A stretch of 61,858 bases of DNA, the filler included, from Jimgerdemannia flammicorona (taxonomy: Eukaryota), in NCBI GenBank assembly GCA_003990765.1. It is 2 parts of 2 records of this genome, joined end to end, with 100 filler letters (N's around TTAATTAATTAA, not from the genome) between each part and the next. Parts side by side here need not be neighbours in the genome. Positions count along the whole stretch, not along the records: positions 30,982 to 61,858 come from RBNJ01000421.1; 1 more part is not named here. One strand, given 5' to 3'. The stretch's first letter is position 1; every line of letters begins with the position of its first letter. Under the pieces are notes generated by a model, which saw only the letters and a program-made list of their open reading frames with translations, was not told the origin of the DNA and did no database searches. Both the position numbers and the translations under genes were made by a program. Shown piece by piece: positions 20,453 to 60,954 of this stretch.

Positions 20453-20470
20453 GACTCATTTGGAGCACTA

Positions 20471-26400: not shown

Positions 26401-26408
26401 ATGACTAT

Positions 26409-26439
<31 letters not shown>

Positions 26440-30881: not shown

Positions 30882-30981
30882 NNNNNNNNNNNNNNNNNNN
30901 NNNNNNNNNNNNNNNNNNNNNNNNNTTAATTAATTAANNNNNNNNNNNNNNNNNNNNNNNNNNNNNNNNNNNNNNNNNNNN
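30882..30981. other. assembly gap / artificial contig linker
   Basis: 44 N + TTAATTAATTAA (30926-30937, stops in all frames) + 44 N. Confidence 0.97.
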
Positions 30982-35131: not shown

Positions 35132-35434
35132 AGTGGTAAATTAAGTGAGATGAAGTGAAGGATGAGATGAAGCAAAGGATGAGGTGAAAAGAATGAGAGA
35201 CGAAAGTAAGCTTTCAATATCTTAAATATTCAAAAGCTATAACATCTTTCAGAAGCTCTTTCAGAATCTCTCCGAAATCTCTTTCCAAAGCTCTTTCTGA
35301 ATCTCTTCAAAATCTCTTTCAAAACCCATTTCTAAATTGTATGTTGTTTGCAATCTGAGGAATGAGGGTAAGGGAGGTGGAGGAATACATGAGGGTTATG
35401 GAAGAGGAGTGGAACACAAGAGGAGTAGAATGCA

Positions 35435-36108: not shown

Positions 36109-36447
36109 TCCAAAGTATGTTTACTGTTTGCAGTTGTATGATGGGTACCAGTCTACCCATGCATATTTATTCATCTATCCTCTGTCCACAATCGATCATT
36201 GGCTATCATATTCACCTCACTGCTCTCTCTCTTGCTGCCCCCCAGCTTGCTGACTCCTATTCCAGGCCCCACAGTTCCTGGCTTTTCCTGCCACTCACCA
36301 CATCCCCCCAACTCCCTGCCCCTTAGTTCACTGCCCCCCCAGCTCGTTTTCCAGTTTGCCACTCCCTAGCTCACTACACCCTAGCCACTTTCCAGCTCTC
36401 GGCCTCCCACTCAATCTCCCAGTCCCCACCATTATTAAACATTTGAA

Positions 36448-38770: not shown

Positions 38771-40057
38771 GGTAGTCTTCAGATATTTTTCACTTTCAAT
38801 TACTCTGAATAATATCCAAATATTTCTGAATTATTTTTTCAGGGCAGAGTTCAGAGGGTTGGGTTCAGGGTCAGATTCAGGGGTCAGGTTCAGGGTCAGG
38901 TTCAGGGGTCAGGTTCATGGTCAGGTTCAGGGGTTGGGTTCAGGGTCAGGTTCAGGAGTCAGGTTCAGGTTTGGGTTAAGGGTAAATAATGAGTCAGCTG
39001 ACATACATTTCTAGGTCAGGTTAAAGATGGGTTATGTTTAATTCTGAGTCAGGTTAAAGATGGGTAATGTATCTTTCTGAGTTGAGTTAAAGATGGGTGA
39101 TGTACAATTCTGAGTTATATTACAGATGGGTGCATATAATTCTAGATCAGGTTAAAGATGGGTGATGTATAATTCCAGGTTGGGTTAAAGATGGGTGACA
39201 TCTAATTCCAGGTTGGCTGTTTTATAGATCGGGTTTCGGGTTAATCAGGTTGGGTTTGTAGAGCACTAAGTAGGGGCTCCAGAGAGAGGGCATATAAGAT
39301 GAGCAACAAAGGGTCTCCTTGTGGCACCCCAAGATAAAGGGGAAAGGTTACACCTCTGTGGCTATTGACAATCAATACAGCCTGACTGTTTTCCAAAAGA
39401 CTGATCTATGACCTTTGGAACTCTGGGGGAACACCAACCCATTTCAACACTACCTCTAGCCAGATCCTCCTCACTCTATCATACATCTTTTCCTGGTCTA
39501 AAAAAACCAATCTTCCATCCACCCCTACAGTCTACACTCCTTCAATCACCTCATGTACCCAAGCTGTCCCATCTCAGATCAACTGGCCACCAACAAATCC
39601 TCATTGCTTCACACCCAGTACTTGCTGAATGATTCTCTGCAGCCTTGTCACCAATATCTTTATCACCAGTTAGCAGTCCATATCAAGTAGCATAATTGAC
39701 TACCAGTTCTTCCAATCTTCCCATTGCCCCTTATCTTTGTAGAGCAAGACCAGTTCAAGGTACTGGCCCCCAATCCAAGTTCCAGACTGAAGTACCTCAC
39801 TATACATTCCTGTCATTTCCTCCAATACCTCTGCCACCCCAGCCATCTTCTTCCAAAAATCCCAGAGAAGTCTATCCTCACCCAGAGCTGTCCTCTTACT
39901 TATTGTAGCCAAGGCCTTGCAAATTTCCTTACCCTTTACTAGATCTCCCAGAGTCCCCAGGCCCATTACAGAGTATGGATGCCAATTCTCCAACTGCCTC
40001 TCAATATTCAAAGCATCCTCCCCCCCTTCCTACTCACTCTACAAATACTCCCAATAA

Positions 40058-42646
40058 GGGACTTCTTTTGCTCAAACCATTCAGAGTGAGCTAAGCCACA
40101 CAGACATCCTTTCTTGACAAGCAACACGTTTTCAAGTTTTCCTGTCATCTATACTAGTGTACAAGGTGTGGCAGAAGTCTAGCTACAGTACACAATAAGT
40201 CTCATCTGTTTCAGTGGAGTTTTCATCAGATGGCAACCTAAGGTTCATCAAGCTCTGAACGTTTGGAGAGAAGGAGGCCTGGTCTGGGTCTCTCCAAGAG
40301 TTTTGCAGTGACAGTTGGAGCAGGGGTAGAGGCAAGAGGAGTAGGTGGTCAGGGGAGGCAGGCTGGCATTGAGAGTTGGCACACGGTGATGGGGGGCAGG
40401 AGGGTGGCTACTAGGCCCATGGGGGTAGGGCAGGGGGGGCGTAGTGTTGACAGGGGTAGGAGTCAGGTTACTGGCCAGATGACGGGTCAGGTGACTGGTC
40501 AGGTGCCTGCTAGGGGCCAGGGGTTCGGAAGTGGTGTGGCTGGGACTGGTATTCCTGGGGCTGGGCCGGTGGCTGGGGTGACTACTGGAGTGTCAGAGAA
40601 CAAGAAGAAGGCAACAATGGCAGCTCGTTCTGATAAACTGGTGGTGCGTTCCTTCTTCCACAAGTCAGTGTTGATGTAGGCCATATCAGCGAATTTTTTA
40701 GGGCTGGGGATGTCTGCTATGAAGGTCTTGCAGCTAGTGGGAGAGGAGATTGCAGGGGCAGAGTCACTGAAGTTCATCCCATCAGCTGAGGTGGTTGAGA
40801 TAGGAATCATCGAGAAGGAGGAGATGGTGAAGGCCTTGGAGAAAGGGCTGGTCATCAAGAGCATCAAGGTCAGTATGGCGAGGTGCCTGAGGTGGGACCT
40901 ATGGGCAGTGCGACTGGTGATTGAAGGGCTGCCGACATTGGGGAGACAGGAGACTAAAGGAATGGTGGCAGAGGCACTGGGGGCATTTGGCGAGATGGTT
41001 GACTTCGGGTTTATGTTCTGGGAGGGGACCAAGTTGAGGAATGGCAACTGCGAGGTAATGGTGAGGCTGGAAGGCAAGGAGGCCATGGGGCAAGGGAGGG
41101 ACTGGCCAGAAGTAGTTTGTATCGGAGGGCAGGAGTGCAAAGTGTGGAGAAGGAAGGGTTCTGAACAGGAGGAGGAGGAATTGCTAGTCGCCCTAGAGGA
41201 GAGAGAGGCTGTAAAGAAATTGCAGAAGAGGAAATGAGAGGAGTTTGCCAAGGACTGGATCTGGATTCCGACTGATGGGAAGAGGAAGAGGTGGCAAAGG
41301 GCAAACTGGGAGCACCTGCAGACAGTCCTTCAGGGCTCGAAAAGGGAGGAGGAGGAAAAAGCAGAGATGGCCAAAAGTCAGATGGAAGAGGTGGAGATGG
41401 CTGAGGTGTTCTTTTCACAACTAGGGAGTGTGGAGAATTCCACTCATGTGCCAGTAACAGGGAAGTGGGCTGATAAGGAGAAGACAAATACTGGGGGCTT
41501 TGAGGAGGTTGTCGAGGTGGTACCGGAGACCCAGTTGGAGGATGTTTGCATGGCAGGAGCAGCAAATGTGCATTGGGAATGCCCAGAGGCAGGCAAAGTG
41601 GTTCGGCTGGAGAAGGGCACTGAGGAGGACAATCTGGTGGATGTGGCTTCTGATGTATCAGTGGATAGAGAGATGCTACAGGAGCTGAGTAGGACTCTGA
41701 GCCCTGCCACCCCTGGGCCCATGGTAATGACAGCAGATGACTGGTATCAGGCAGTGCTCAAGGAACTTGTGGAGGAGGATATCAAGGAAGTGGATATATT
41801 TAATAGATTGCAGGAGGCCTGGGAAGGGTTTCTCAATATGGCATTGCAGGGGCCAAAGTTAGTGATGGCGATGGTGGCAGTGATTCTGGATAATGAAGGA
41901 TATGAGGTTGATGAGGACCATATGGCTGACATCAGGAAGGTAGCATCAGAGCAAGTGGCAGTCTTTTGCAGTAGTGTAAATAGAGCTCATATCTGGAGGG
42001 CTATCTGTGAGGAATGGAAGGCTATTATTTGCAGTAGGGCTGAGAAGGTGGCAGCAAATCTGGTGGAAATTTAGACATTTATATTCATGATGATGAACAG
42101 TCTACATATATTATCACTAAATATCAATGGTTTGTGTGATGGAGTGAAGTGAAGGCATTTGTTTCGGTGGCTGAAGAACAGGAGGTATGACTTGATATTT
42201 CTGCAGGATGTTCGGGCCTATGGGGAGCAAGATTATAAGGAGTGAAGCAAGGAATGGTATGGTAGTACAGGGTGGAATGAGCAGGTGGGCATCCTGGTTG
42301 GCTTGGGGAGAGGAGAGCTGAAGGAGGTTGAGGTGTATGGTGATCGATTGGTCTGGGGGAGACTGAAAGGAGGAGTGGGCGATGGGCTTATAGTTGGCTC
42401 AGTATATCTGCCAGTGGTTGGCAGAGAGCAAAACCAATGGGTGGAAGGTTGGCTGGATTGGGAAGGCCGAGAGGAGATTGGGCTGGACATTTTGGGAGGG
42501 GACTTCAACATGGTTCGTGACAGGACACTAGATAGGTCTGATGGTGGAGTCAGCATAGCAGTTTCTACAGGGCTCTCATGATGGCTTCAAGTTGAGAAGG
42601 AAATGGGATTAGTTGATGGAGTATGACCGTCAAGGTGAGGAAACAT
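40058..42646 (+). mobile_element. diverged L1/Tx1-like LINE-F, 3'-truncated, inside LINE-E
   Basis: ORF1 remnants about 40230-42074 (LKFIP..EVVEIG, WDLWAVRLV, FWEGTKLRNG). APE start MNSLHILSLNING at 42093, LQDV, GGDFN. No RT or poly(A). Confidence 0.85.
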
Positions 42647-45600
42647 CCATGATAAAAACCTAGTAGGTCTCTCTCTCTCCTCAAGCTCCAGCCACCTCAG
42701 CCATACCACTATCCCCTTCAGCCTAACCTCTTTCTCTCTTTGTAACACTTTCTTAAGCTCCTCAACTTCCTTCTTGATCCTCCCAATACACCAGTTGGCT
42801 GCCTTCCAGTCATCTAGCACACCTGCCCATCTCTACATAAGTGCCACCAATCACTGTAAGGCCCAATCACCATCTGCTGCTGCTGAGTATACCTCCCTTT
42901 CTCTACTTCTCTCCAGTACCCCTGAGCACTTGCTTTCAACCTCTTCCAGCAGTCCCCAATCACCAGGCCCTGTTTCTGCCATTTCCCAATTTTCACAACA
43001 ATCTCCTTCTCCCAGTCTGCCTATAAAGCCCCATCTTCTAACAAAGAAGAATTCAGTAGCCAATGTCCAGGCCCATCTCTACTTCCCCCAAACCTCCTCC
43101 CTCTGAATAGACCCCAGTGATCTGACCACAGACACCAAACCACCTCCAGCATTGTCCAGACATCTGCTCCCCAGTATTCCAATATCAATATCCAGTTGAT
43201 CCTTGAGCCCAGTCCTACTGTCCAGTGAGTATAAATTCAATGATCATCCCAAAACTGTCTCTCAGAATCAACCAAAGAACTCAACCTCTCTATCTCCAAC
43301 CAAATATCCAACCTACCACTCCTGCTCCTCATTCCTCTCCTGCCATCTCTCCTGTCCAATATCTTATCTTGCACCATGTTGAAGTCACCCCCCAGGCAGT
43401 CAAACCCAACCTCACCCAAGATACTGGTCTCTTTCAAACTTTGAATCCAATTCACCCATTCCCCTCTCTCTGCTGGGCAGTAATATGACTCCACTGTCAA
43501 TGGGCTCCATCCAGGCCTCTTCTACACTCCCAACACTAGCTGAGTCCCCCAATGTCCAATGTCCCCAATGTCCCCTATCCCCTTTCGAACTAGGACACCC
43601 ACCCTCTCTGTCCACACTGCAGTCCCCCCCCATTCCTTAGTCCAATCCTGTAAGTCCACATCTACCTCACAACAGATATCCTGTAGTAAAAAGAGATCCA
43701 CATCCAGTCTCTTTAGATATCCAAATATGTACTTCCTTCTAGCTGCCCCCCATAACCCATTTATGTTTAAAGAGAATATTCTAGTTGTACTATTCATATT
43801 GAATAATGTTTGGATTTGAGACCCCAGTCCAGTATTCTATGCTCATCTCATTCCCAGCCAGATCCAAGCACTGCTCTGCTTTCAAGTCACCCTCTATGAC
43901 AGCCTGAGCATCCAATGCTTCCAAGATTTCTTAACATTCCACCCCATCCACCACCTCTATCTCCAATCAATAGTCTGTGCAGACCACTCTCCACTTCTCC
44001 AATCCCTTTCTTGAGCCCCACAAATAAGCTGTCCAGTTATTTGCAATCTCTCTAAGTTCCTCCTCTCTCTGATCATTGACATGGTATTCAACTGATTCCA
44101 AGAGAACTGCCAGGATCTCATTCTGCACCTTTCTTGGTATCTCCTCACTATAAAGGATTTCCTCCCAATACATCTCCTCCATAACCTAGAAGTTCTCACC
44201 TCCAACTCTTCTGCTACTACCCCTTCCAGAGTCTTCAACAGCTACTTCTCCTCATCCACCACCTCTGCCATACCCTGGGCAACTCGATCACCCCCCACCT
44301 CTGGGTCCACCAAAGTGCTCCTCCTCACTGACTCATCCCACTTCTCATCCAGGATATCCAGTAACTCCTCTTCACCCCCTGCCCCCTCTGGGACACTATA
44401 CTGAGAGTGTACTTCTTTGCTCATTTCCACATCTGCCTCTATACCACCCTTCCTCTCCTCTCTTTGTCCATCCTGGGCCCCATCTTAGGCCATCTCTTGT
44501 TCCCCAGCCCAGTCACTCTCATACAATCCTGCTCTCCCATCCTCTGCTCTGCCACCAGCCCAACTGCTGCCCAACTTCACAAGCAGTTCCTTCTAGATTC
44601 TCCTCCCCTGTATCTTCTCTCAGATCACCCTATCCATCCTGATCCTCTTCCCATCAATGACTTCCACAACTGTCCTGACTTCATACTCCTTCCAAGCCAA
44701 TCTCCTCCTCTCAACTGCACCAGCCAGATCCTCCAGAGCCTCAAGCAAATCTTCCTTCTCTTCCTGAGTCCCCTTCACCCTTGTGATCTTGTACTCCATC
44801 TGTCCCCACTTCAGAGTTACCAGCCAATCCCTTGTCTTCCCTGTGTTCTTCTTTCCAGCCAACCTCACCCAGATATCGACATCACCAGTCCAAAGCTCTG
44901 TACCCTCCCAGACCTTGAACCTGATGTTCAAAATCTCTCCATACTCCTTGACTGCTCCCACAATCAACTCCCTGGCCCTCTCCCTCAACACCAAAGGAAG
45001 ATCCAACACTATCAGCTGCACCACATGGGGGTCCCAGAATATGCATCTGGCCATAGGAACCACAACCCCACCCACTGTTACTCCCTTCTCCATAGCAGTC
45101 AGAAATGCTTCCTCTTTCTCAAACCCCACCTTGATCCCTTCCTTCTACTTCAAAAACTTCACCAACACTGCCTTTTTCGCCTCCTGTACCACCAGCCCCA
45201 AGATCATCCTTATAGTTACCACTAAGCCCCTGGAACACAATGTGATGGTGAATTCTGAACTTGATTTCTTAAGTAACAGTCCCGACACCATACCCATCAC
45301 CCCATCTGCCAGGTCCCCAGGCCTCATGCCCACTCTCTGTTCTGAACCAATAACTGCCATCATATCTGGATTTTTTCCAGATCCCCAGTTACAGCCCCAT
45401 CAACAGTCACATCTCCAGCCCCTACTCCACCCCCTTCCCTACCACCAGATACTCCCCTGGGCACTCCTTCCTGTCTCCCAGCAGCAGCTGTCAATGCCTT
45501 CCCTAGGCCCAGCCAACCATTTAGACCAGTGGCCATTCTCTCCATCTTGACCTTGTCAGCAAAGGTTGACCTCTCCCCTCCATATTGTCTTAGGCTGCCC

Positions 45601-45832
45601 CTCTCTCTATCACCAGTACCTCAACCAGCCATCGAGGCCCCTGGCATCCCCAAACCATCTCTCCTCCTCCCCACTTATTGCTAGCCAAAGGCACCACTGC
45701 CCCTCTGGCCAGTACACTCACCAGTGCGATTGTTGCCATCCATGTCAATAGTCATCTATCACCAAAAACATTGTAAAAAGTATTGTCTGAGTCTTGTGTC
45801 ACCTGAATGTTACTGGTGAAAGATGTGTCTTT

Positions 45833-48800
45833 TGACAGCCTTTGAGAGTAATGTACTGAACAAGAGTCTGGGAGGATGAGGCCCATTCCTGAAGTAGCTG
45901 GTCCCAAAGGAATAACTGAAGGAAGGAGCAGAGAAAGCAAGTCTTGCAGACCTAAGGATAGAGGTCTCAGTACTAGTCAAGGAAGTCAAGCCAGGAGGTC
46001 CAATGCCAGAACTTATCAATTATACAACCCAGGGGATTTGTGATAAAGTACTTACTAATAAAACTGATGGAGTTATTGCCAGACTTGCTATACCAATTCA
46101 GATGGGCTTGGAACATACAGCAGAGGTCTGATATGTGATAAAGGAAGGAAGAGAGGCCAAGGATTGAGCTACCAAGCAAGGGATGGCCAGAAAATCCGAC
46201 CACTTAAGTAATAGTATTATCAAAGACATATTCAGGATACTTCAACACCAGAAGCCCCATAGTAGTTATGAGACAGAAGATTCATAGAAAGGGAAGCCTG
46301 TACTCCAGCTAAGGTCTAATAAAGATATGTATGTTGGACAGCTTGATCATATGGCCAAACCCAAGAGTTTGTTCTGCCTTTGCCACATTCTGCAATATAA
46401 GGCTGACAAAGTCAAACTTTTATTAGTATATGGTATACCCAGGTATATGTAGGAGAGGGGTCATGGGCAGGGCTCTCTCTCAATCTATATAGTACAGTTG
46501 GCAGGACCAATATAACTGCACTTCTTCAGGTTGAGTTCTATACTATTTACTGAGAGCCAATCTTTATAAAAATCAATCATTCTCTGCCCTTTCATAGCAG
46601 TGCAGGAGGTAAGGGCAATATCATCAGTAAATAAAAGCCTAATGGAGAAGTTATACTCCTTAAATTGCTCATCAAAAGAGGTATCTAGAGAGTCAATGAA
46701 CATGTCAAAGAGCTAAGAAGAGAGGAGGGAGCCCTGGAAGAGGCCAAACTCAGTAGGGACTGAAGGGGTGATGAGTCTATTAACAACTATCTGATAAGAC
46801 CAGTGATTGGACAGACTATAGATAATGTTAAAGAGGGTTGCATTGGCTCCTTATTCCTCAAGTTGAGAAATATTGAGCTTGAGGGAGACTCTATTATATA
46901 TCTGCCAGAGGTCCAGAAAGACACAGTAGCCCCACCTCTTGGCCCATGTCTCATGTGAGAATAAGATATGAGAAAGAGATGAGAAGTGGGTTTAGAAGCT
47001 GTCTTGACAGTATGACATTCTGTTAGGCCACTACAGCTCTTGACATAGCCTTCCAACAGTTCAAATAGTCTACAAAATATCTTAGTGAGAGCAATAGGGT
47101 AAAACCCATCAATTATCCAGGATTCCTCCTTCTTAGGAACTGGAGTAATGATGGCAGAGTTCCAGTGGTAGAGAGTGAGTCTCCAAACCATACACATCTA
47201 AATGAAAAAGGACAATACTTTCAATAGACTACCAGGAGCATCCTTCTTACCTGCTTTTACTTGAAGGATCCAGACATACAAGGAGACAGCTCTACAGGTC
47301 TTTGTAAGGGTGTAGCTGCAGATAGCTCACTAAACTACAGGTTGGTCAAATCAAGACTGTAGCTCAAGAGTATCTATTCCAATGGAGAAGACATCCTCAG
47401 AGTCATCAATATGAAGAGAGACATTCAGTTGACTGAAAAGAGTAGTAAAATAAGCAACCACATTATTAAACACCAGAATAGCAGAGGAGTAAGATTAGAG
47501 AGAAGTAGCAGGAGTGGAGTAGTATGCTTGCTTGAAACTACAAATGACATCAGAAACTGAAGATGCACTGCAAAGAAGGTCCCACCAGGGGAGTAGTGTT
47601 GCTCTGATTTCTCTTATGTCATATGAGCCCAGAATGTTCTCACAGACAGATTGTAGACCAGAGGTCAAAAGAGAGTCAAGGGAATCATGATCTTCTACAG
47701 ATAAAAAGCTAGTGATGTGGTCCTAGACAGAGTAAATTGACCTAATAATAGTATTGCAAATGATATATGCTGATTCCTGAAAGTGAGCTTGAATGACCAG
47801 ATCAGTCAGGTACTTTGCAGAGTAGTGGCAGACACCAGCTAAGACAGCAACTGGAAAGGGAGAGAAGGCAAAGGAGACTGTAAGGAGGGAGAAGTGCTCA
47901 GTGGTGATAGGGAGAGTAGTATAGGTAAGGGACATATAGAGAGATATAGTGGTGAATGTGTGATCAACGTATATAGATCCAGTCATCTGAGTTAGGTGGT
48001 TTAAAACCCACATCATTAAGGAGGTATCAATGACCCCAAGGACCAGAGTTGATATCACCAAGCCAGATACTGAAGTACATATGTATTGATGTTACTGATC
48101 AAGAGGGCCTTACCCAGGAAGAGACCAGATATAAGATCATGGAAGCCACTAATGGGAAGAGAGGGGGGGGGTACAAACCCTGACCAAAGCCAGACTCTGG
48201 AATATGAGCTAGATATAGAAGGGGTCAGCAGAGGACTTAGAAATGAGTGGGGTGAAATGGTTTGATACAAGGACTACAAGACTACCATTCTGGTAGCTTA
48301 CAATCCTGTTTAATACTAGTGGAAAGATATATGAACAAGTAGAGAGAGATATAGCAGAATGTGCTATGTTTCACATATGAAAAGAATATTGAGAGCAGGA
48401 TCAATCAACTGACTGAGTACATGGAACTTGTTCTGAGTTTGTCCATGTGTATTGAGGAATCCAACTCTTATTGAAGGCTGGGCACATTAGTGCCAACAGT
48501 ATGAGAAGCACCTGAAGTGAAAGCCTTGGCTTCCAAATCCATTGCCATCTCCCCAGTTATGGCCACAGTACCATCTGCCTTCAAAGTAGGGCTGGCCAAC
48601 CAGGGGGCAAGAGAGAGGAGAGTGAGGTTAAGTTCTATAGCCCATGCCTTATAGAAGATCTGTATCTCAGGCCTCTTCATGATGGCATTGCCAGCCAACT
48701 GCTGGACCTGAGTATGAAAGGATTACAGTACCAATACTTTCACGGTCTCTGTGACATTCTTATTGCAGAAGAGTATAGGGTCCCAGGCTAAGAGCACTGA

Positions 48801-49636
48801 GAACTCAAGCCCCTTCATCTTCATTTGGAATACTATAATATAATAAGAGTATAGGAGGAATTCTATAGTTGATGCCAAGACATATGATATATTGAGAACT
48901 TTGGACAATATTATATAGACATCATACAAGTTCTCCTAGATCTGTCTGATCAAAAGATGGGCAAAGCTATCAATGTAAACACACTGCAGCCTAGTGCCTC
49001 TCTCAGTCAGCAATAATTGAGAGGTTGGCTTGTAGGTCATATGTGGTGACAGCAGTCCTTTCTATCTCATGGTAGGCCTGGGTCTTATCTTTGATAGAGA
49101 CCTTCTTAGTGATAGCAGTGTATGATTTGGGGGAGACTGGGGTTGAAGTGGGAGACAAAGACAGACCAACAGTACTGGGTCCAATAGACATAATCTGGGG
49201 CACTGGCCTAGGAGTCTAGAACTTGCTCTTTTTAGGGGGCATGGCTTTGGCAGCCAGAGGTGCTGCTGTGAGAGTAGTCTCTTTTAGTGGTTTCTCAGAC
49301 TATAATATGACAGCTTTAGTGATCTGCTTATTCACTCGTTTCTGGGCCTTTGACTATATATTCATAGCAGGACCAGTAGGAGGGGGGGCTGAGGACTTGG
49401 TGTGGGCAGATGTAGATGAGATAGCAGGAGTACTTCCTGAAGGAGTACTAGATAATGTGGGGGTGGTAGCTACTGAGCATACAGCAAGCTGTGCCATTAG
49501 CTAGGCATTGATCTTAGCCAGTTTGGCCACTTGAGTCAGCAGATCTGAGATCTGCTTCCTCATTGAGACCATCTCCATGACCAGATTAGAGTTGGCTGAG
49601 GGGCTGCACAACTGGCTATTGGGGTTATTGTCAAAC
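45833..49636 (-). mobile_element. telomeric-junction APE-RT non-LTR element, copy A (3' end cut by LINE-E; 5'-truncated in ORF1)
   Basis: GFLNTHG..LNILFICE (APE) near 48370-48465; YVDHTF; PVPKK..FYPIALT; FQGSLLS..FDMFIDSL..LLFTDDIAL (RT) at 46610-46745. Collinear with copies B and C. Confidence 0.88.
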
Positions 49637-49652
49637 TAGGGTTAGGGTTAGG
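49637..49652 (+). repeat. telomeric-repeat tract TAGGGTTAGGGTTAGG at the A/B junction
   Basis: Read directly; followed by CTTCAAGTAAG, the element 3' end in reverse. Confidence 0.93.
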
Positions 49653-50059
49653 CTTCAAGTAAGGATTTATTTATTATAGAGAAGATAAGATATATCAGAG
49701 CAATAAATGGCAAAGACTTCTAAGATAAGAAAAGCAAAATGAGACCAGCAAAATAAACAACTAGCTAAGAAGAACAAAGTAAAGGCCAGAGAGGTGACCA
49801 CCCTATGGATGGGCTGGATAAAACCATTTTGTCATAGCCATAAAGATAATAAATGTGAAAAGCAAAGAAGAGAGCTATAATAAAATACACAAATGCTCAG
49901 TACCAACTACAGCAACAATATCAATACCCAAACTCCAAATAACTAACATAAGATATATAACTCAATGTACACTCAACAACAAAGGAACCAACTGTGGTGA
50001 ATGAGGAGAAAGAAGAGAATAATGAAAATATATGATCACTTGATCACCAAAACATCTTC

Positions 50060-53000
50060 AGATAGAACCTGACTATAAGGTGGCCACCAGAATTACACAT
50101 ATCATTAATAGTATGGTAGGCTGTCTTATGAAGAGCATGAAGAGGGTAGATACAAAGCTCTTCCTGCAATTCATTACTGGTAAACCAATCAAGGTATTCA
50201 TCATGATTGAAATTATCTTAGAAGGTGGAATAGAAGCCATCAAGAAGACTACACCTGAGAAGATGTATATAATGAAACTTATCTCCATAGGGGCAGGAGT
50301 GAGATTGGCCAAAGTAGATATAATACTAGGTGAGGGCAGAATGGACAAGCCAAGAGGAGAAGGATAGGATACAGTTGGTACCTCGAGACCATAAATGGCC
50401 TTTGGGGGTGATATACTGAATGAGAGCCTGGGAGGAGGAGATTCCTGATACAGCTAATCTTAGAGAAATGACTGGAGGAAGGAGTAAAGTAAGCAGGTAT
50501 TGTAGACCTGAAGATGAAGGTCCCAGTACTAGTTGAGGAAGTTAAGCAAAAAGGTCTAATGCTGGAACTTGTCAATAATGGAACCTAGGGGATATGTGAC
50601 AAAGTGCTTCTAAGAGAGCTGATGGAGTTATCACCAGACTTGCTATACAAATCCAGATGGACTTAAAACATATAGTAGAGGTCTGATATATGATGAAGGA
50701 AGGAAGAGATGCCAAGGGTGGAGCTGTTAAGTAAGGGAAAGCCAGAAAACCCAACTGCCCAAGCAACAGTATCATCAAAAACCTACTCAGGTTGCTTTAA
50801 TACCTGAAGTCCCATAGTAGTTGCTAGACAGGAATCTCATAGGAGGAGAAGGTCTTATTCCAGCTGATGCCTAATAAAGGTATGTATGATGACCACCTTG
50901 ACCATTAGTAACTAGAGTAGAATACAGTTATAGTAGAACCCAAGAGTTTATTCTATCTTTACTGTATTCTGCAATGCCAGGCTGATAAAGTCAAACCCTT
51001 TATTGGTATACAGTGTGCCCTTTATTGGTATACAGTGTGCCAAGATATATGTAGGATGGTTCCAAGTGACTATAAAAAAAAAAAAAAAAAAAAAAAAATA
51101 TATATAGGATAGGGGTCATGGGCAGGGTTCTCTCTCAATCTACATGGTACAATCAGCAGAGTGAAGATAACTATACTTCTTAGGATTGAGTTCCATACCA
51201 TTCACCAAGAACCAATCTTCACAGAAGTCAATCATCCTCTACCCTTCTATAATAGTACAGGGGGTGAGGGTGATATCATCAGCAAAGAAGAGACTGAGAG
51301 AGAAGTTGTACTCCTTAAACTGCTCATCAAAGGAAGTGGCAAGAGAGTCAATGAATATGTCAAAGAGCCAAGGAGAGAGGAGGGATCCCTGGAAGAGGCC
51401 ATGCTCAGTTGGGACTGAAGGGGTGACAAGGCCATTAACAACTATCTAATAAGATAGTTATTGAAGAGGCTATAGATGATACTAAGGAGAGCTGCATCAG
51501 TACCTCATTCCTCAAGTTGAGAGAGAATGAGCTTGAGGGGGACTCTATCATATATCTACCAAAGGTTAAGAAAGATATGGTGATCCCACTCCTTGGCCCA
51601 TATCTCATGCAAAAGCAAGACATGGGAAAGAGATAAGCAGTAGGTTCGGAAGCCATTCTGGCAGTATGACATTTCTGTCAGGCCACTTTTGCTCTTGACA
51701 TATCCTTCCTAACACTGCTCAAAGAGTCTATGAAAAATCTCAGTAAGGCAATAGATTGAAACCTATCAATAATTCAAGATTTATCCTTCTTTGAAACTAG
51801 GGTATAATGGCAGAGTTCCATTAGTATGGAGTGAGCCCCCAAACCACACATATCTGGAAGAAAAAGGAAAAGGCTTTCAACAGGCTACAGGGAGTATCCT
51901 TCTTGTCTACTATCACCCAAAGGATCTAGGTATGCAATGAATCAGCCCCACAGGCCTTCATGAGGGAGTAGCTGCAAATAGCTCTCTAAACCACAGGCTT
52001 ATCAAACCCAGACTGTAGTCCAAAAGTACCCATGCTGAGGGGGAAGACATGCTCAGAGTTATTGAGATGGAGGGAAGTGTTCAGTTAACTGAAGATAGTG
52101 GTAAAATAAGCAACCACCTCATCAAAAACTGGAACAGTAGAAGAGTAAAATTAGAGGAAGGAGGGGGGGGTGGAGCAATATACTTGCTTAAAACCACAAA
52201 TGGTACCAGAGACTGAAGATGTACTGCAAAGAAGGTTCTTCTGGGGGAGGGGTGCCACCCTGATCTCTCTTGCATCATATGAGTCCAGAATGTCCTCACA
52301 GATAGACTATAGACCAGAGGTCAAAAGAGAGTTGAGGGAATCCACAAACTGCTGGCAATCTTCTACAGATCAAAAGCCAGTGATGTGCTCTTAAACAGAG
52401 TAAATGGACATGATAATGGTATTGCAAACAATATCCACTGATTCCTAAAGGTGAGCTTGAATGATCATATTGGTCAGGTATTTCACAGAGTAGTAACAGA
52501 TACCAGCTAAGGCAATAACCAGCAAGGAAGAGAAGGGGAAGGAGACAGTAAGAAGGGAAGAGTTGTCAGTGGTGACAGGGGGTATAGTATAGGTGAGGGA
52601 CATATGGAGGGATGCAGTGGCAAATATGATCAATGTGTATAGATCTAGCTACCAGGGTTAGATAGTTCAATGACCACATCATTAAGGAGGTACTGATGAC
52701 ATCTATCTGATTCAGAGGACCAGAGTTGACATCACTAAGTCAGGTACTGAAGCAAGTATTGATGTCACTGATCAAAAGGGCCATACCCAGAAAGAGGCCA
52801 GATATAAGATCACAGAAGCCACCAATGGGAAGAGAGGGGGGGGTGTAGACCCCAACCAAAGCCAAGCCCTGAAACATGAGCTGGATATGGAAGAGATTGG
52901 CAGAGGACCCAGAAATGAGTGGGGCAAAATAGTTTGACATAAGTACCATAAGACCACCATTCTGGTGACCCACAATCCTGTGCAATACTAGAGAGAAGAC

Positions 53001-53142
53001 ATGTGAATGAGCAGAGAGGATATAGTGGAATGTATCATGTTTTACATATGAAAAGTATATCAAGGGCAGGACCAATCAACTGACTGAGTATATTGAACTT
53101 GTCCTAAGTTAGTCCATATGTATTGAGGAACCTAACTCTCAT
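50060..53142 (-). pseudogene. copy B ORF2: APE endonuclease - RT - C-terminal C.(C)G..F...H...C finger
   Basis: MRVRFLNTYG..LDILFICKT, GHQNGGL, GVYTPP, SDINT, IDHI, FQGSLLSP..FADDI (51270-51395), SCPYGDKFHYIHLLRC near 50250-50300. End approximate. Confidence 0.85.
51060..51098 (+). mobile_element. ultra-truncated L1-like insertion (about 14 nt + poly(A)) in copy B
   Basis: TTCCAAGTGACTAT(A)n matches the LINE 3' terminus. Flanked by ATATATGTAGGATGG / ATATATATAGGATAG; absent from copies A and C. Confidence 0.85.
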
Positions 53143-54627
53143 TGGGGGTTGGGTGTATTAGTGCCAACAGTGTGGGAAGTATCTGAAGAGGAAGCCTCAG
53201 CTTCCAAATCTATCACTATCTTCCTGATTATGACCACAGTACCATCTGCCTTCAAAGTAGGGCCAGCCAACAGGGGGGCAAGGGAGGGGAGGGTGAGGCT
53301 GAGTTCTGTGATCCATGCCTCATAGAAGGTCTGCACCTCAGGCCTCTTTGAAGTGGTATTGCCAGTCAACTGCTGGACTTGAGCATTGGAGGATTGGAGT
53401 ACCCATGCTTTCACAGCCTCTGTGGCATTCTTGTTACATGAGAGCATAGGGTCTCAGACCAAAAGCACTGAGAACCTGAGTACTATTATCTTCTTTTGAA
53501 ATGCCATGATATAATCAGGGTGTAAAAGGAATTTGATAGTCGATACCAAGACATATGACATGTTAAGAACGTTTGACAATATTACATAAACATCATATAA
53601 GTTCTTTTGGATCTGCCCAATCTTGAGATGAGTGAATCCATAGATGTAAATATACTGCATTCTGGTACCTCTCTTAGTTGGTGACAAATGAGAGGTTGGC
53701 TTGTGGGTCATATGTAAAAGAGTGGCAGCAGCAGTAGCCCATTCTGTCTCAGTAAAGGCCTGGATCTTATCTTTGATGGAAATCTTCTTAATGGTAGAGA
53801 TATACAATTTGGATGGGGCAGGGGTTGAAGCAGGGAATGAAGATAGATCAGTGGCACTACATCCCATAGGTGTAATCTAGGCCACTAGCCTGAGGGCTTT
53901 GGCCTTGCTCTTTTTAGGGGTCACAGCTTTAGTGGCCAGAGGTACAGCCATGGGAGTTGCCTCCTTTGACAGTGCACCAGACTGCAATGTAGTGGCTTTA
54001 ACAGCCTACTTATCTGCTCTCTTCTGGGCTTTGACCATATGTTCATAGTAGAACTAGTAGGAGGAGAAACTGAGGACTTGGGGAGAGCAGATGTAGAAGA
54101 GGTGGCAGGGTAATTTCTGAAGAAGCACTAAATAATGAGGGGGCAGTAGATACTGATTGTACAGTAAGCTGGGACATTAGCTAAATATTGATCTTGATCA
54201 GATTGATAACTTAAGTTAGCAGATCTGAGTTCTGCTTCCTCATTGCAGTCATCTCTATAACCATATTGGGGTCAGCTGAGGGGCCTACATAACTAGCAGT
54301 TAGAGTCATTCCCAAATAAGTGTTAGGGTAAACATACTTATTCTGATTGAGGATTGGGAATATGGAAGAGAAGGGCAGGTACTGGGTATCATGGTGTGAA
54401 TTAGAAGAAATTGCAATCTTTTTATCATCTTCTGCATTATACAGAGAAGATAAATATACTGATATTGATTGTGTATCCCTGCATAACCTGCACATCACTA
54501 TAAGGCTATTCTCATCAAAACTAAGGGAAAGAAGACTGATGCTGTGACATTCAGTGCAGTGAAGAGAGGTGCCAAAAGGTGGGTGGCATTGCCATCATTA
54601 CTGACAATGGAAGAGGTGGCTAATATT
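53139..54627 (-). pseudogene. copy B ORF1 (gag-like position; stop overlaps ORF2 start as ATGA)
   Basis: Block IYIYGF..L.IGQI.KNLYDVY.ILS.VLN.SYV..STI.FLL.PDY..AFQKK..LGFSVLLAWDP conserved in all three copies. TGA 53141-53139 overlaps ATG 53142-53140. Start uncertain. Confidence 0.7.
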
Positions 54628-54839
54628 GCCAGAATAGGTAAAGGTATATTTGTGGGTATTTTAGAAATTGTAAAATACAATTTATATGACCTTTGTTTGT
54701 ATAATTAAAAAATAATGAGGAAGAGGGATATTTATACACAATGAGAAGCTTAGCTAATCAAAGTGACTACTTTCTTAATTTGGAATAGCTTCTGGCTGTA
54801 AATCCAAGTGTAGCCAAATGGGAAAATCACTTAACTGGC

Positions 54840-54855
54840 TTAGGTTAGGGTTAGG
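54840..54855 (+). repeat. telomeric-repeat tract TTAGGTTAGGGTTAGG at the B/C junction
   Basis: Read directly; again followed by CTTCAAGTAAG. Confidence 0.93.
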
Positions 54856-57800
54856 CTTCAAGTAAGAATTTATTCATTGTAGAGAAGAAAGATTCATTAC
54901 AGCAATAAATGGCAAAGACTCCTAAGATGAGAAATGTAAAAAGAGGCCAGCAAAGTAAACCACTAGCTAAGAAGAACAAAACAAAGGCCAGAGAGGTAAC
55001 TATACTGGATAAAACCATTGTGTTATGGCCATAAAGATAATAAATACAAAAGCAAAAAGGAGAAGAGCTAAGATATAATACTCAAATGCCAGACACCAAC
55101 TATAGGAACAATATTGACACCCAAACTCCAAACAGCTGATATGAGATATATAACTCAACTCTCAACAACAAGAGAACCAATCAAGATGAATGAGGGAAAA
55201 GAAGGAGATAAAGAAAATGTACAATCACTCAATCAATCAAGTATCTTCATAATCTCAGTCAGGCAAAACCCAACTATGAGGTGGCCACCAGAATTATACA
55301 TAGTATTGATAAAATAGTAGACTGTCTCATGAAGAGTAAAAGAGAGTAGGCACAAAGTTCTTCCTACCATTCATCAATAGTAAACCAATTGAGCTATTCA
55401 TGTCAGTTAGAATTACCTCAGAGAGTGGAATAAGAACCATCATGAAGACTGCACCTATAGAGAAGGCCACAATGAAACTTATATCTACAGAGGTAGGGGC
55501 AGGATTGACCAAAGTAGCTATAATACCAGGCAAGAGTAGAGCGCACAAGTAGGGGGAGGAAGGAAAGGATATATTTGGCACTCTGAGACCTAAGACAGCC
55601 CTTGGGAGTAATGTATTAAATAAGAGCCTATGAGGAGGAAGTCCATTCCTAGAGCAGCTGATCCTGAAGAAATGACTGGAGGAAGGAGTGGAGCAAGCAA
55701 GTCTTGCAGATCTAAGAATGAAGGTCCCAGTACTATTCAAGAAAGTTAAGCCAGGAGTTCAAATGTCAGAACCTGTCAATAATAGAACCTGGAGGATGTG
55801 TGACAAAGTGCTCACTAAGAGCACTGATAGCATTGTTATAGACTTACTATATCAATCCTGATAGGCTTGGAACATACAGCAGAGGTCCAATATATGATGA
55901 AGGAAGAAAAGGAGACCAAGAATCAAACTACCAAGCAAGAGATGGCTAGAAAAACTGACTGCTCAAGTAATAGCGTCATCAAAGACCTACTCTGGATACT
56001 TCAATACCTGAAGTCTCTTGATAGTAGCTGGATAGGAAGCTTATGGAAAGAGAAGACCATATTTCAGCTGAGGCTTAATGAAGATATGTATGATGGCCAG
56101 CTTAACCATTAGTGTCTAGAGAGGACCATAGGCATGGCAGAATCTTAGAGTTTATTCCATCTTTGTCACATTCTGCAATATCAGGCTGACAAAGTCAAAC
56201 TCTTTATTGATGTATAGCATACCCAGATAAATATAAGAGAGGGATCATAAGCAGAGCTCTCCCCCAATCCATACAGTAGCGGACTGCTACGGGTGCAGAA
56301 CCGCAGCAGTGCAGTGCAGAACCACAGCAGTGTAGAACCGCAGCAGTGCAGTGCAGAACCACAGCAGTGCAGAACCGCAGCAGTGCAGAACTGTGGCAGA
56401 TGCGGACCCGCAGAAGTTTATTAAAACGCACCTGGTTTGGAAAAATTATCATCTCATATTATTCCAAGTGACCAACCATTCGACAGCTTAGCAGTACCCT
56501 AGTATAGTCAGCCAGACCAACATAACTACACTTCTTAGGGTTGAGTTCCATACCATTCACTGAGAGCTAATCTTTACAGAAGTCAACCATCCTCTGCTCT
56601 TCTGTGGTAGTGCAGGGGGTGAGAGCGATATCATTGATAAAGAAAAGTATGAGAGAGAAGTAGTACTCCTTAAACTGCTCATCAAAGTAAGTGGTGAGGT
56701 GGTCAATAAACACATCAAAGAGCCAAGGGGAGAGGAGAGAGCCCTGAAAGAGGCTGTACTCAGTGGGAACCAGAGAGATGGTAAGGTCATTAACAACTAC
56801 CTAATAGGAGCAGTGATTGAATAGACTTTAGATAATACTAAGGAGGGCTGTATCAGCTCCTTGTTCCTCAAGTTAGGAAAGAATAACTTCAGTGGAACTC
56901 CATCATAAGCCTGTCAGAGGTCAAGAAAGACATAGTGGTCCCACTCCTTGGTCCATGTCTCATACAAGAGCAAGATATGGGAAAGGGGTGAGAAGTAGGT
57001 TTGGAAGCCACCTTGGTAGTACAATATTTCTGTCAGGCTACTTTGGCTTTTGATGTAGCCTTCCAAACACTGCTCAAAGAGTCTACAAATCATCTCAGTG
57101 AGAGTGATAGGGCAAAATCCATCAATTGTCCTAGATTCCTCTTTCTTGAGAACTGGAGTAATAATGGCAGAGTTCTAGCAGCAAGGAGTGAGCCCCCAAA
57201 CTATGCACATCTGGAAGAAGAAGGACAAGGCTTTCCTTAGGCTATAGGGGGCATCCTTCTCACCCACCATCACTTGAAGAATCCAGAGGTGTAAGGAGTC
57301 AGCCCAACAGGCCTTTGTGAGAGAGTAGCTGTGGATAGCTCTCTAAACCACAGGTTGGTCAAATTAAGACTGCAACCCAAGAGTACTTATGCTAGGAGGG
57401 AAGATGTCCTCAGAGTCATCAAGGTGAAAGAAGGCATTTGGCTGGCTAAAGATCATAGTAAAATAAGCAGCAGAGGAGGGAGATTGGAGGAGGGTAGAGG
57501 GGGTGGAGCAGTATGCTTGCTTGAAACCATAAATAGTATCAGAGACCGAAGATGTACTGTAAAGAAGGTCCCACTGAGGGAGTGGCACTGCTTCGATTTC
57601 CCTTTTGTCATATGAGCACAGAATGTTCTCACAGATAGACTGTAGACCAGAGATCTAAAGAGAGTCAAGAGAATCCACAAACTGCTACCGATCTTCCACA
57701 GAGCAAAAGCCAGCAATGTGGTCCTAGACAGAGTAAATAGACCTAACAATGGTATTGTAAATAATATCTGCTGATTTCTGAAGGTGAGCTGGACAACTGG

Positions 57801-59712
57801 ATTGGTCAGATATTTTGCAGAGTAGTAGTAAACACTAGCCAAGGCAGTAACTAACAAGAGAGAGAAGGGAAAGGAGATGATAAGAAGAGAGAGGTGGTTA
57901 GTGGTGATAGGAGGAGCGGTGTAGGTGAGAGATGTATGAAGAGATGCAGTAGTGAACATATGGTCAATATGTGTGGATCCAGTCACTAAGTCAGATGATT
58001 AAATAACCACATCATGAAGGAGGTATCAATGATATCCGTTTGATCCTGAGGACCAGAGTTGATATCACTATGGTGGGCATCAAAGTGAATATTGATGTCA
58101 CCAAGCAGAAGGGCCTTACCCAGGAATGGGACAGATATATGATCTTGGAAACCATCAATGGAAAGAGAGTGGGGGGCATAGACCCCAACCAAAGCTAAGT
58201 CCTGGAATATGAGCCAGATATGGAAGGGGTCAGCAGAGGACATGGAAATAAGTTGAGTGAAATAGTTTAATATAAGGACTACAAGACCACCATTTTGGTG
58301 ACCCACAATCCTGTATGATGCCAGAAGAGAAGACATATGAATGAGCAGAGAGGTATGCAGCAAAATTTACTATGTTTTACATATAAAAAGAATATCAAGA
58401 GCAGGACTAATCAACTGACTGAGCACATTGAACTTGTTCTGAGTTAGTCTATATACATTGAGGAACCCTACTCTAATTGGAGGCTGAGTGTGTTAGTACT
58501 AATAGTATGGGAAGCACCTGAAGAGGAAGCTATGGCTTCTAAATCCATTGCCATCTCCCTGGTCATGACCATAATATCTTCTGTCTTTGAAGTAGGGCTG
58601 GTCAATAGAGGGGCAAGAGAGGGGAGGGCAAGGCCAAGTTCTGTATCCTACATCTTGTAGAAGGTCTACACCTCAGGCCTCTTTACAGTGACATTGCCAG
58701 CCAACTGCCAGACCCAGGCACAGAAGGATTGAAGGACCCATGCCTTCACAGCCTCTGTAGTGTTCTTGTTTTGGGAGAGTACAGGGTCCCAGGCTAAGAG
58801 TACTGAGAACCCAAGTACTTTCATCTTCTTTTGGAATGCCATGATATAATCAGGGCACAGCAGAAATTTGATAGTTGATGCTCAGATGTACAATATATTA
58901 AAAACTTTTGACAATATTATATAGACATCATATAAGATCTTCTAGACCTGCCCAATCTTAAGATAGGCAAACCAATCAATATAAATGTACTGTAGCTAGG
59001 CAGCCCTCCCAGTAAGTGACAAATGAGAGGTTGGCTTGTGAGTCATACATGAAAGAGCAGTGGCAGTGGAAGCCCTTTCCATCTCAGAGTAGACCTGGGT
59101 CCTATCTTTAATAGAAATATTCTTAGCAGTAGCAGCATATATTTTGGGTGAGATGAGAGTTGAAGTGGGGGACAAAGATGGACTAGCAGTACTGGGTCTC
59201 ACAGGTATAGCCTGGGGCACTGGCTTGGAGGCCTTGGCCTTGTGGGTACAGCTTTGATAGCTGGGGACACAGCTGTAGGAGTTGCCTCCTTTGGCAGTGT
59301 ACCAGACTGCAATGTGGCAGCTTTAGTGGCCAACTTGTCTGCTTACTTCTGGGCCTTCAACTGCATATTTATAGCAGGACCAGTTGGAAGAAAACCTGAG
59401 GACTTGGGGGGGGCAGATATGGATAGAATAATAGAGATACTCTCCAAAGGAGCACCAGATGATATGGGGGCAATGGGTGCCAATTTCACTGAAGTGCATG
59501 AAGAGATAGGTAGTATTGCCATCATTGCTAACAATGGAGGAGATGGCTGACATTGCCAAAATAGGTGAAGGTATGTTTGTTTGTTTATGTGAAATTGGGA
59601 AACATAGCTCACATGACCTTTGTTTATGCAACAAAAAAATAATAGAGAAGGCAGGTATTTATATCTAATGGGAGGCTTAGCTTATCAAACTGACTGCTTT
59701 CTTAATTTAAAT
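54856..59712 (-). mobile_element. telomeric-junction APE-RT non-LTR element, copy C (about 0.4-kb deletion in ORF1; 5' end truncated)
   Basis: GHQNGGL..GVYAP..LLGDINIHF (ORF 57986-58363), HIDHMF, RT motifs near 56620-56760. 59510-59712 aligns with 54585-54782 of copy B. Confidence 0.88.
56278..56500. mobile_element. 223-bp MITE with 12-bp imperfect TIR and 3-bp TSD (PIF/Harbinger-like), with internal GTGCAGAACC(G/A)CAGCA repeats
   Basis: AGCGGACTGCTA...TAGCAGTACCCT, flanked by AGT (56275-56277, 56501-56503). Absent in copies A and B; CpG retained. Confidence 0.75.
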
Positions 59713-60877
59713 TATCTCTTTCTTCACTACCTTACTGGTCACAATAATTTGATAGGCAATCTTCTAAGTTCACTTTCTATAATTATTACACCCTCTATCA
59801 TGGGTTGGTTTGCTGTACTTGTTGCAAGGCAGTAGGGGAGGCAATAGTGATAAGTTGTCTATTTATTGGTGTCTGATTGGTGTCTTCTCTACTTTTTTAT
59901 GATTCCTGGTACCTTCAGGTATATCTGGAGTATATTCATTTTAGTGTGGCACTTTCTTCCTTTTATCATCATCAACAAGGTGCTGTCTTGGTACATTATG
60001 AGTTATGTAGAGAGTTGGCTAATCTTGGGTATCAAGTGCCCAGTATAGGTTACTTACAGGTTCTCAGTACCTGTGGTGGGGCCCTCTGGCTTTGGCAAGC
60101 TTCCTAGCATATGTAGTTCTGGCATAGGTGACTGTTTTTTGGATGTTGTCGGAATGGGAGTAGAGATGGCCATTATAGATAGGAGGAAGGATGATTATGG
60201 TAGACCAGTAGGGTACTAGGCTGTGGGTGGTCATTGGGACTGATGTAGATGCTGCTTCAGTGTGGCCTTTTAATTGGTGCAGAGTGGTTAGGTAATAGAT
60301 ATCACTCTCAGCTTCTTTTGGTAATTCAGTCAGTTAGGCCCTAGTCATTGGGAGTGGTCAGGGGGCTTGAGGCTATCCATTTCAGGTATCTTGGCTACAC
60401 TCAACTACAACTGGGAGCTGATACAGCAATGTGATCAAGACCTACAGGCTTAAGTAGTGGGGTATTGAGGGTCTCCTCCTGTCTCATGTATAAGTCCTTT
60501 ACTCACCTCAACTGGGAGAACCAGACTCTATCTACTCTAATGTACTTTGATGAGAGTTTTTCTTTACCTGTCATTCTCTTTGGAGTGATAGGGGCTATTC
60601 TATTTAGCTTGGATATAGCCTTTTATATATATTGGAGTTTTGGATATATGCTTTCAGTCATTGGTATATAGCTGGATTCCCCCTGGTTATAGGAAGAGTA
60701 TGATATATAGAATAAGATATAGACTACTATGGGCTCTGCTGCACCTGATATAATTGAGCTGCTAGACAATAGCTAGCCTAGGTTAATAGGGAGGCAGTGC
60801 TTGATGGATGCTCAGGGAGGGTTTTGATCTATATAGTCTAGGTTCCCTTCCAATAAAAATCCACAGAACTTTGAGTC

Positions 60878-60881
<4 letters not shown>

Positions 60882-60954
<73 letters not shown>
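60882..60954 (+). repeat. long poly(A) tract, probable retroelement tail
   Basis: About 72 A with one T; AATAAA at 60852-60857. The upstream sequence is not the LINE A-E terminus. Confidence 0.6.

Follow-up and report, generated by a model that had tools for sequence, protein, structure and literature searches.

Retrotransposons that target telomeres are the main natural link between mobile elements and the maintenance of chromosome ends. The documented cases are few and comprise the insect R1 and Jockey clades, Zepp and Tx1-1_ACar, CRE-like elements in fungi and Giardia, and Penelope-like elements (PLEs) that are endonuclease (EN)-deficient, as surveyed in PMC10088271. The same survey places telomere-located long interspersed nuclear elements (LINEs) in four clades, namely CRE (MoTeR1, GilM and GilT), L1-like (Zepp1 and Tx1-1_ACar), R1 (TRAS and SART) and Jockey (HeT-A, TART and TAHRE), counts EN-deficient PLEs as a fifth telomere-located group and, for fungi, names MoTeR1 only (PMC10088271). 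Here we analyse a 61,858-nt stretch of the Jimgerdemannia flammicorona genome (GenBank assembly GCA_003990765.1), referred to as the window, in which three tandem copies of a LINE with an N-terminal apurinic/apyrimidinic endonuclease (APE) and a reverse transcriptase (RT) occupy positions 45,834–59,712 and are joined by short TTAGGG tracts. We consider it fairly likely that these copies and their metagenomic relatives belong to a clade, probably fungal, of LINEs that are either telomere-repeat-specific, as TRAS is, or primed by telomere ends, and that the window holds an old, CpG-decayed relic array of such elements.

If this is correct, another APE-type clade would have acquired telomere specificity independently and would provide a natural candidate endonuclease with TTAGGG specificity. 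For fungal genomes, the elements would mark former chromosome ends and could be a source of interstitial telomere tracts, which are described as destabilizing chromosomes in Pyricularia (PMC8381367).

By analogy, the present family would work most like TRAS, without this implying membership of the R1 clade. TRAS1 and SART1, R1-clade elements of Bombyx and other insects, are likewise LINEs with two open reading frames (ORFs), an APE and an RT, and TRAS is described as having the 3′ end of its sense strand joined to the C-rich telomere strand (PMC7265360). The TRAS EN is reported to nick the G-rich strand of TTAGG at T^A and to need only 2–3 repeats (PMC7265360). TRAS elements form arrays in telomeric regions, and the window array shows the same orientation. 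Unlike the family described here, TRAS occurs in insect hosts with the repeat TTAGG, and TRAS1 has poly(A) before the repeats, whereas none is seen at the 3′ ends that we list below; the ORF1 of our family also differs from TRAS and SART in lacking a Pfam zinc knuckle. A second APE-type parallel is Tx1-1_ACar of the green anole, an L1-like LINE reported to be (TTAGGG)n-specific (Kojima & Jurka, Repbase Reports 2013, as cited in PMC10088271), in a vertebrate lineage that is said to use (TTAGGG)n (PMC7265360). Compared by description only, it differs in being a vertebrate element of the Tx1 clade, whereas zf-RVT, a type of C-terminal domain frequent in the L1/Tx1 group, had no match in the six relatives of our family that were scanned.

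Among fungal elements, MoTeR1/2, FoTeR and Cnl1 of the CRE clade resemble the present family in having TTAGGG tracts at the 3′ junction and in forming head-to-tail arrays with short interstitial tracts, 5′ truncations and internalized relics, as described in PMC12857005 and PMC8381367. Their endonuclease is of the restriction-like type and they group with SLACS, CRE and CZAR, whereas the present family carries its APE at the N terminus and can be aligned with L1 ORF2p. The initial annotation of this locus had drawn the same contrast for fungal telomeric elements; it holds for these (MoTeR, FoTeR and Cnl1; PMC12857005) but not for telomeric elements in general, because TRAS and SART are APE-type, as is Tx1-1_ACar according to PMC10088271. 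Athena and Coprina, which are EN-deficient PLEs, and ‘family 4’ of Zymoseptoria tritici are described as having short telomere-repeat stretches at a 3′ end that faces away from the telomere, and as lying in tandem with truncated copies (PMC4522978), but they have no endonuclease and a PLE-type RT, in contrast to the LINE-type RT and APE found here. The subtelomeric family of Z. tritici, 3.4–3.5 kb in length and with 1–3 TTAGGG units at its 3′ end, is called PLE-like by its authors (PMC4522978). HeT-A, TART and TAHRE (Jockey clade; Drosophila) also form head-to-tail arrays with their 3′ ends toward the centromere; they attach by poly(A) to ends without telomerase repeats, whereas the window junctions consist of telomerase-type repeats. 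Searches of the full-text literature, which did not extend to Repbase, Dfam, Novikova et al. 2009 or subscription journals, yielded no description of a fungal APE-type telomere-repeat LINE. Systems of this kind are known (TRAS/SART, Tx1-1_ACar and MoTeR), and the present clade seems to represent a new member.

Three LINE copies and their junctions

A BLAST comparison of 44–61.9 kb with the window showed three head-to-tail copies of one element on the minus strand, here designated A, B and C, with a period of ~5.2 kb. Pairwise identities are 76.7% over 3,247 nt (A–B), 75.9% over 2,938 nt plus 75.5% over 1,395 nt (B–C) and 74.8% over 3,015 nt (A–C); a sensitive search of the window found no fourth copy, no stray fragment and no trace of the missing 3′ end of A. 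Copy B (49,654–54,839) is the longest, with a 5′ untranslated region (UTR), an ORF1 remnant, APE, RT, a C-terminal region and a 3′ UTR. Copy A (45,834–49,635) was delimited by the BLAST pairs, a three-way alignment and tblastn of the related protein P0005, of which residues 178–704 match 47,968–46,413; ~430 nt are missing from its 3′ end, which adjoins a Tx1-like LINE at ~45,833. Copy C (54,857–59,712), delimited by the BLAST pairs and the three-way alignment, has an internal deletion of ~400 nt in its 5′ part. The three 5′ ends all differ: B is full length, C is ~68 nt shorter and A is ~510 nt shorter.

Both junctions between copies are occupied by telomere-type repeats. Read along the plus strand, the 5′ end of A is followed by CTAGGGTTAGGGTTAGGC (18 nt; 49,636–49,653) and then by the 3′ end of B, and the 5′ end of B is followed by TTAGGTTAGGGTTAGGC (17 nt; 54,840–54,856) and then by the 3′ end of C, with the G-rich strand on the plus strand in each case. 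The tandem minus-strand arrangement of three diverged copies and the run of the G-rich strand from the 5′ end of one copy into the 3′ end of the next had been proposed in the initial annotation and are borne out by BLAST, tblastn and the tract positions; the TTAGGG-type nature of the tracts also stands, whereas the length of 16 bp given for them does not. With one mismatch allowed, the 61,858 bp contain three TTAGGG 12-mers, all of them at the two junctions; 0.49 were expected, and none of 100 shuffles reached three. On the sense strand, the 3′ ends of B and C read AATAAA-N13-GCCTAACCCTAACCC, the AATAAA signals (49,666–49,671 in B and 54,869–54,874 in C, both on the minus strand) lying 13 nt upstream of the tract. 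Both of the 3′ ends that are preserved in the window are thus joined to the telomere repeat, in one fixed orientation. A telomere-like motif, ACCCTAAC in the sense direction, also lies inside copy B (54,322–54,329, minus strand; from the alignment and a sequence check), where, in the alignment, the 5′ truncation of copy A meets the first tract.

The coding regions of the copies are badly decayed. Among 48 stop-to-stop fragments, 3 matched Pfam RVT_1, none of them reaching the gathering score; a word-indexed protein search with a 136-aa RT fragment, against longer proteins, returned nothing at E ≤ 1 × 10−3; and an Rfam scan of the window gave 0 matches. We translated the RT cores through their stops (X per stop) and searched a HMMER profile of the three-copy alignment against 1.84 billion representative proteins, which returned 1,082 proteins at E ≤ 1 × 10−3 and 130 at E ≤ 1 × 10−10. 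The best matches are proteins of ~1,000 aa with the RT at about residues 560–700, and tblastn of intact relatives of this size covered all three copies from about residue 4 to about residue 704, that is, from APE through RT. On the minus strand, the APE remnant lies at 58,025–58,480 in C (tblastn of P0008 residues 4–171, P0006 residues 29–186 and P0005 residues 65–182), at ~52,623–52,970 in B and up to 47,968 in A (tblastn). The RT core lies at 46,413–47,018 in A, 51,098–51,750 in B and 56,435–56,896 in C (tblastn, RVT_1 on fragments and read-through translations). Upstream of the APE on all copies, tblastn with the ORF1 of the relative L006 identified an ORF1 remnant, the RRM-like C-terminal part, at 53,277–53,738 in B (E = 4 × 10−22), 58,657–59,217 in C (E = 1.7 × 10−17) and 48,642–49,025 in A (E = 1.2 × 10−15).

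Intact relatives complete this picture. ORF2 in the clade consists of an N-terminal APE, the RT and then a Cys/His motif; it is preceded by an intact ORF1 of 404, 616 and 639 aa in L006, L008 and L005, respectively, which overlaps the start of ORF2 by a few bases. Pfam assigned no family and no zinc knuckle to the ORF1s of the family. All of the six relatives scanned with Pfam carry RVT_1; Exo_endo_phos exceeds the cut-off in P0008 (residues 32–217), scores weakly in three others and is missing from the remaining two. A profile of 20 family members aligned with human L1 ORF2p across EN and RT (E = 6.6 × 10−49, profile positions 5–746). The EN motifs NxxGL, ETW, YxPP, GDxN, xDH and DH, which we take to contain the catalytic residues, are all conserved in the family and line up with those of the L1 EN; in the window copies they have decayed (for example, SDH to TNH). 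The presence of an N-terminal APE with an RT, as initially annotated, is therefore upheld by relatives that map to all three copies and by the alignment of EN motifs. As judged from homology, the window copies are confirmed as two-ORF APE-type non-long terminal repeat (LTR) retrotransposons (LINEs) with RT, N-terminal APE and an upstream ORF1 and without LTRs. An LTR element or a satellite is ruled out by the ORFs and the LINE homology; a MoTeR-type element of the CRE clade, which would have a C-terminal restriction-like endonuclease and no APE, is ruled out by the N-terminal APE; and PLE membership is ruled out because an APE is present and both RT and EN align with L1 ORF2p.

In 3,387 well-aligned three-way columns, 367 changes are private to A, 363 to B and 400 to C (mostly transitions; ~11% each), so the copies are of equal age within error. 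The array formed within a short time span and is long dead, with many stops and frameshifts and with its CpG decayed. The observed/expected ratio of CpG across the whole window is 0.08 (233 CpG in 61.9 kb) as against 0.84 for GpC, which indicates long-term heavy cytosine methylation or deamination across a transposon-rich region. Some features of single copies are changes after insertion: the RT region of copy B has a 25-nt A-run insert and an exact 22-bp tandem duplication (51,053–51,098 and 50,996–51,041), and at the equivalent place copy C has a tandem-repeat insert with 16-, 21- and 37-bp units (56,293–56,417).

3′ ends and arrays of the relatives

Scanning metagenome contigs with the family alignment yielded 76 loci, of which 14 (71 kb) match the ORF2 query over most of its length and are referred to as clade loci; one of these, L011, is 5′-truncated. 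The other 62 RT loci (273 kb) served as a comparison set. A perfect C-strand telomere repeat of at least 12 nt lies just 3′ of the 3′ UTR, on the sense strand, in 7 of the 14 clade loci and on the opposite strand in none, compared with 0 C-strand matches and 1 G-strand match among the other 62 loci. Imperfect tracts were recognized by eye in five more clade loci (L006, L007, L008, L010 and L011); of the remaining two, the contig of L002 stops before the 3′ end, and L012 has no tract in the 367 nt present. Single imperfect 12-mers in the outgroup loci L038 and L044, which have no 3′-end context, were discounted. The layout of the 3′ end is constant in the clade: AATAAA, 2–22 nt and a tract of CCCTAA units of 9–32 nt, without poly(A). 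The phase of the tract is fairly regular on the element side (N|CCTAAC in the window, L001, L005, L006 and L008) and variable on the far side among 3′ ends. From the 3′ junctions of the window, L001, L005 and L006, a nick at TTAGG^G would be predicted.

An internal control is provided by the Tx1-like LINE of the same window, which ends in AATAAA, 20 nt and then poly(A); the telomere-type tail is therefore a property of the family and not of the genome. ORF2 identity among clade members is only ~30–40%. An arbitrary tail would drift over such distances, and the retention of CCCTAA thus points to constraint by a conserved host sequence.

Three relatives have further features at their 3′ ends. 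In L004, about eight 30-bp tandem units (4,476–4,720), each with CCCTAAC, directly follow the 3′ telomere tract, and in L005 the tract is followed by GCTAACCCTAA motifs ~31 nt apart (5,750–5,820); these may be subtelomeric repeats or the repeat-bearing 5′ end of a next element, as in MoTeR and FoTeR upstream repeats. The 3′ end of L007 (~3,180–3,221) reads CCCTACCCTTTGG and then (TTCTTTGG)3 rather than clean CCCTAA units, which may reflect a different host repeat or decay.

Arrays also recur among the relatives. The contig of L006 starts with the last 16 nt of the 3′ UTR of an upstream copy and CCTAACCCT; the 5′ end of an intact element of full length comes next. The contig ends of L008 overlap by 123 nt at 100% identity, giving a period of 5,460 nt for a unit with intact ORF1 and ORF2 that is joined through an imperfect tract; L008 is a tandem array or its collapsed assembly. 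L011 contains the terminal 3′ UTR three times (595–666, 836–895 and 2,816–2,870), two of these being very short 5′-truncated fragments. In L018, the flank immediately after the tract encodes residues ~303–357 of the ORF2 of a family member in the same orientation. Head-to-tail junctions are thus seen in four independent relatives, each with another 5′ truncation point. The initial proposal of a telomere-repeat-linked APE-type family that builds arrays in the telomere-attached polarity gains from these relatives, which share the CCCTAA 3′ junction and occur in arrays.

In a quick maximum-likelihood tree of RT cores (68 rows; high-scoring segment pairs under 200 aa, including those of window copies B and C, were dropped), copy A falls inside a 21-row clade (Shimodaira–Hasegawa-like approximate likelihood ratio test (SH-aLRT) support of 97) and, within it, an 11-row subclade (SH-aLRT 91), and the tract is present in all 10 evaluable members of this subclade. 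Named relatives are fungal, namely Calcarisporiella thermophila (38% identity over 63% of P0005) and Sporobolomyces ruberrimus (43% over 19%); the six top profile matches are cluster singletons from Logan, ENA and JGI without informative names. On the evidence of the two named relatives and the tails of the relatives, the clade is probably fungal. ESM Atlas searches with P0005 and the neighbouring LINE ORF matched only RT/APE clusters. Against solved structures (E ≤ 1), the family profile matched L1 EN chains and none named as an R1-clade endonuclease; the best match was L1 ORF2p, and the matched chains included no other APE-LINE ORF2. Structures of the TRAS1 and R1Bm ENs are presumably in the PDB. 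The next-nearest proteins to the family carry PF14529 and RNase H. Pfam found nothing meaningful in a gene-like ORF beside L006.

Proposed mechanism and alternative explanations

The anatomy of the copies, the family-wide 3′ architecture, the arrays with variable 5′ truncation and the APE catalytic motifs of intact relatives are observed; from them we infer a priming step, an origin of the 3′-OH and a possible telomeric location as follows. The transcript would end in one to a few CCCUAA units just after the AATAAA signal. A 3′-OH on the TTAGGG strand would pair with these terminal units and prime reverse transcription (target-primed reverse transcription, TPRT), with any poly(A) being skipped. 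This 3′-OH would be provided by an APE nick inside a telomere-repeat tract, as in TRAS, or by a natural G-strand chromosome end, as for EN-deficient PLEs and HeT-A/TART; we favour the EN-dependent route because the APE catalytic motifs are conserved, although TART of Drosophila also retains an APE domain. The 5′ end would then be joined, often with truncation and through microhomology, and the coincidence of the truncation point of copy A with ACCCTAAC may mark such a junction. Each new copy would regenerate a short tract at its own 3′ end, so that repeated events at one site would build head-to-tail arrays in which, as in the window, the G-rich strand leads from the 5′ end of one copy into the 3′ end of the next. 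The regular element-side and variable far-side phases of the tracts are expected if the 3′ junction forms by base-pairing and the next 5′ junction by end-joining. Had the array grown at a chromosome end, that end would have lain to the right, at higher coordinates, and copy A would be the oldest.

Several observations weigh against this interpretation. No telomere-repeat tract is found at the 5′ junction of copy C, which adjoins non-telomeric DNA at ~59,712; the equal divergence of A, B and C gives no age gradient; and the truncation of A, instead of being independent, may have come about later, by deletion between short direct repeats. All of the tracts are short (9–32 nt), long telomere arrays were never seen beside a copy, and in L003, L019 and at the 3′ end of L006 itself the sequence beyond the tract is not telomeric and does not belong to the family; RNA may therefore have templated most of the tract, and insertion may have taken place at non-telomeric sites. 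The sister subclade of L013, L015, L017, L020 and L049 has no tract, metagenome contigs can be collapsed or chimeric, and no copy is placed relative to a chromosome end. That TTAGGG is the telomere repeat of the host is drawn only from the two named relatives and the tails of the relatives. The initial annotation had read the array as a fossil subtelomere or an internalized former chromosome end; the window would be accounted for equally well by an insertion into a tract that was interstitial or self-generated. We nevertheless regard LINEs directed to telomere repeats or primed by telomere ends as the probable explanation overall. A more far-reaching version is put forward only tentatively: that this is an old and widespread, probably fungal, APE-LINE clade specialized on TTAGGG, added to chromosome ends or telomere tracts without poly(A) by means of a short CCCUAA 3′ terminus that serves as an address label, and convergent with TRAS, Tx1-1_ACar and the MoTeRs, in which case the window would contain an internalized former chromosome end and L008-type relatives would still be active.

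Alternatively, a single insertion with its 3′ tail might have been followed by triplication of the unit of element plus tract, through unequal crossing-over or replication slippage, and the array would then be silent on targeting. Such segmental amplification fits the equal divergence of the copies and the nearly equal lengths of the two tracts, and the short 5′ end of A could then result from a later deletion between the tract and the internal motif; we consider it unlikely, because the three 5′ ends differ and because unrelated relatives show head-to-tail junctions with other truncation points, which points to a mechanism at the level of the family and not to a local accident. Such arrays are, moreover, seldom formed by ordinary LINEs, and the Tx1-like family of the window is dispersed and nested, not tandem.

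The telomere-repeat tail across a clade of 30–40% identity and the L011-type arrays of very short 3′ fragments are left unexplained by template jumping within one TPRT event, which we regard as quite improbable. Non-LTR RTs can jump between templates, and here the enzyme would twice have left the 5′ part of an element RNA and resumed at the 3′ end, terminating in CCCUAA, of another, the tracts being RNA-templated and a telomere unnecessary. A single event of this type would account for copies of equal age, for uniform and short tracts, for a truncated first copy (A) followed by longer ones and for the 5′ end of C on non-telomeric DNA, which would be the final 5′ junction; the loss of the 3′ end of A bars inspection of what would be the only true target junction. 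Simple-repeat tails are carried by many LINE clades, and the match of the tail to the telomere repeat could be a coincidence, the tail being an ordinary 3′ microsatellite, with arrays arising by self-targeting, through a preference of the endonuclease or of priming for the tail of the element itself, as in microsatellite-specific LINEs and without involvement of chromosome ends, as the constant shortness of the tracts and the non-telomeric flanks of those in L003, L019 and L006 would allow, but this is very doubtful given that an arbitrary tail should drift, yet 12 of the 14 clade loci have CCCTAA-type units in one fixed orientation, and that the telomere repeat is the only repeat that these hosts are expected to share.

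Surroundings of the array

The window is made up largely of other transposons. A Tx1/L1-like LINE family occupies 1–4,007 (plus strand), ~12,400–18,300 (minus), 30,982–33,221 together with 39,269–40,054 (minus) and 40,400–45,800. Its strands are extremely asymmetric in composition, the sense strand being rich in G (38% G and 14% C; GC skew of about ±0.45), its copies end in AATAAA-N20-poly(A), and an RT ORF of 553 aa is still open at 1,438–3,099. The closest database protein to this ORF has 63% identity over 43% of the query, and named relatives are proteins of fish Tx1 type, of Mucorales and of Mycena. A block at 20,000–30,000 is distantly related (65–71%) to this G-rich family and contains only 10.5% C, with a GC skew of about +0.5 and 1–2 CpG per 4 kb.

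Two copies of a 6-kb element, 83–85% identical, lie at 4,429–10,355 and, inverted, at 33,227–39,216, bounded by arrays of a 33-bp repeat in inverted orientation. One copy is inside a G-rich LINE copy, and the element is therefore a separate mobile element, probably a decayed terminal inverted repeat or foldback DNA transposon. Both copies contain a degenerate hexamer array, (AACCTG)n, at 4,745–4,841 and 38,838–38,983, which, speculatively, may be a CpG-decayed CCCGAA-type repeat.

Between the 5′ end of copy C (59,712) and the window end, AATAAA followed by a 73-nt poly(A) run (60,853–60,954, plus strand) is the 3′ end of another retroposed sequence, but no target-site duplication was clearly recognizable. 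Two 44-nt runs of N, at 30,882–30,925 and 30,938–30,981, lie beside the poly(A) tail of a G-rich LINE copy.

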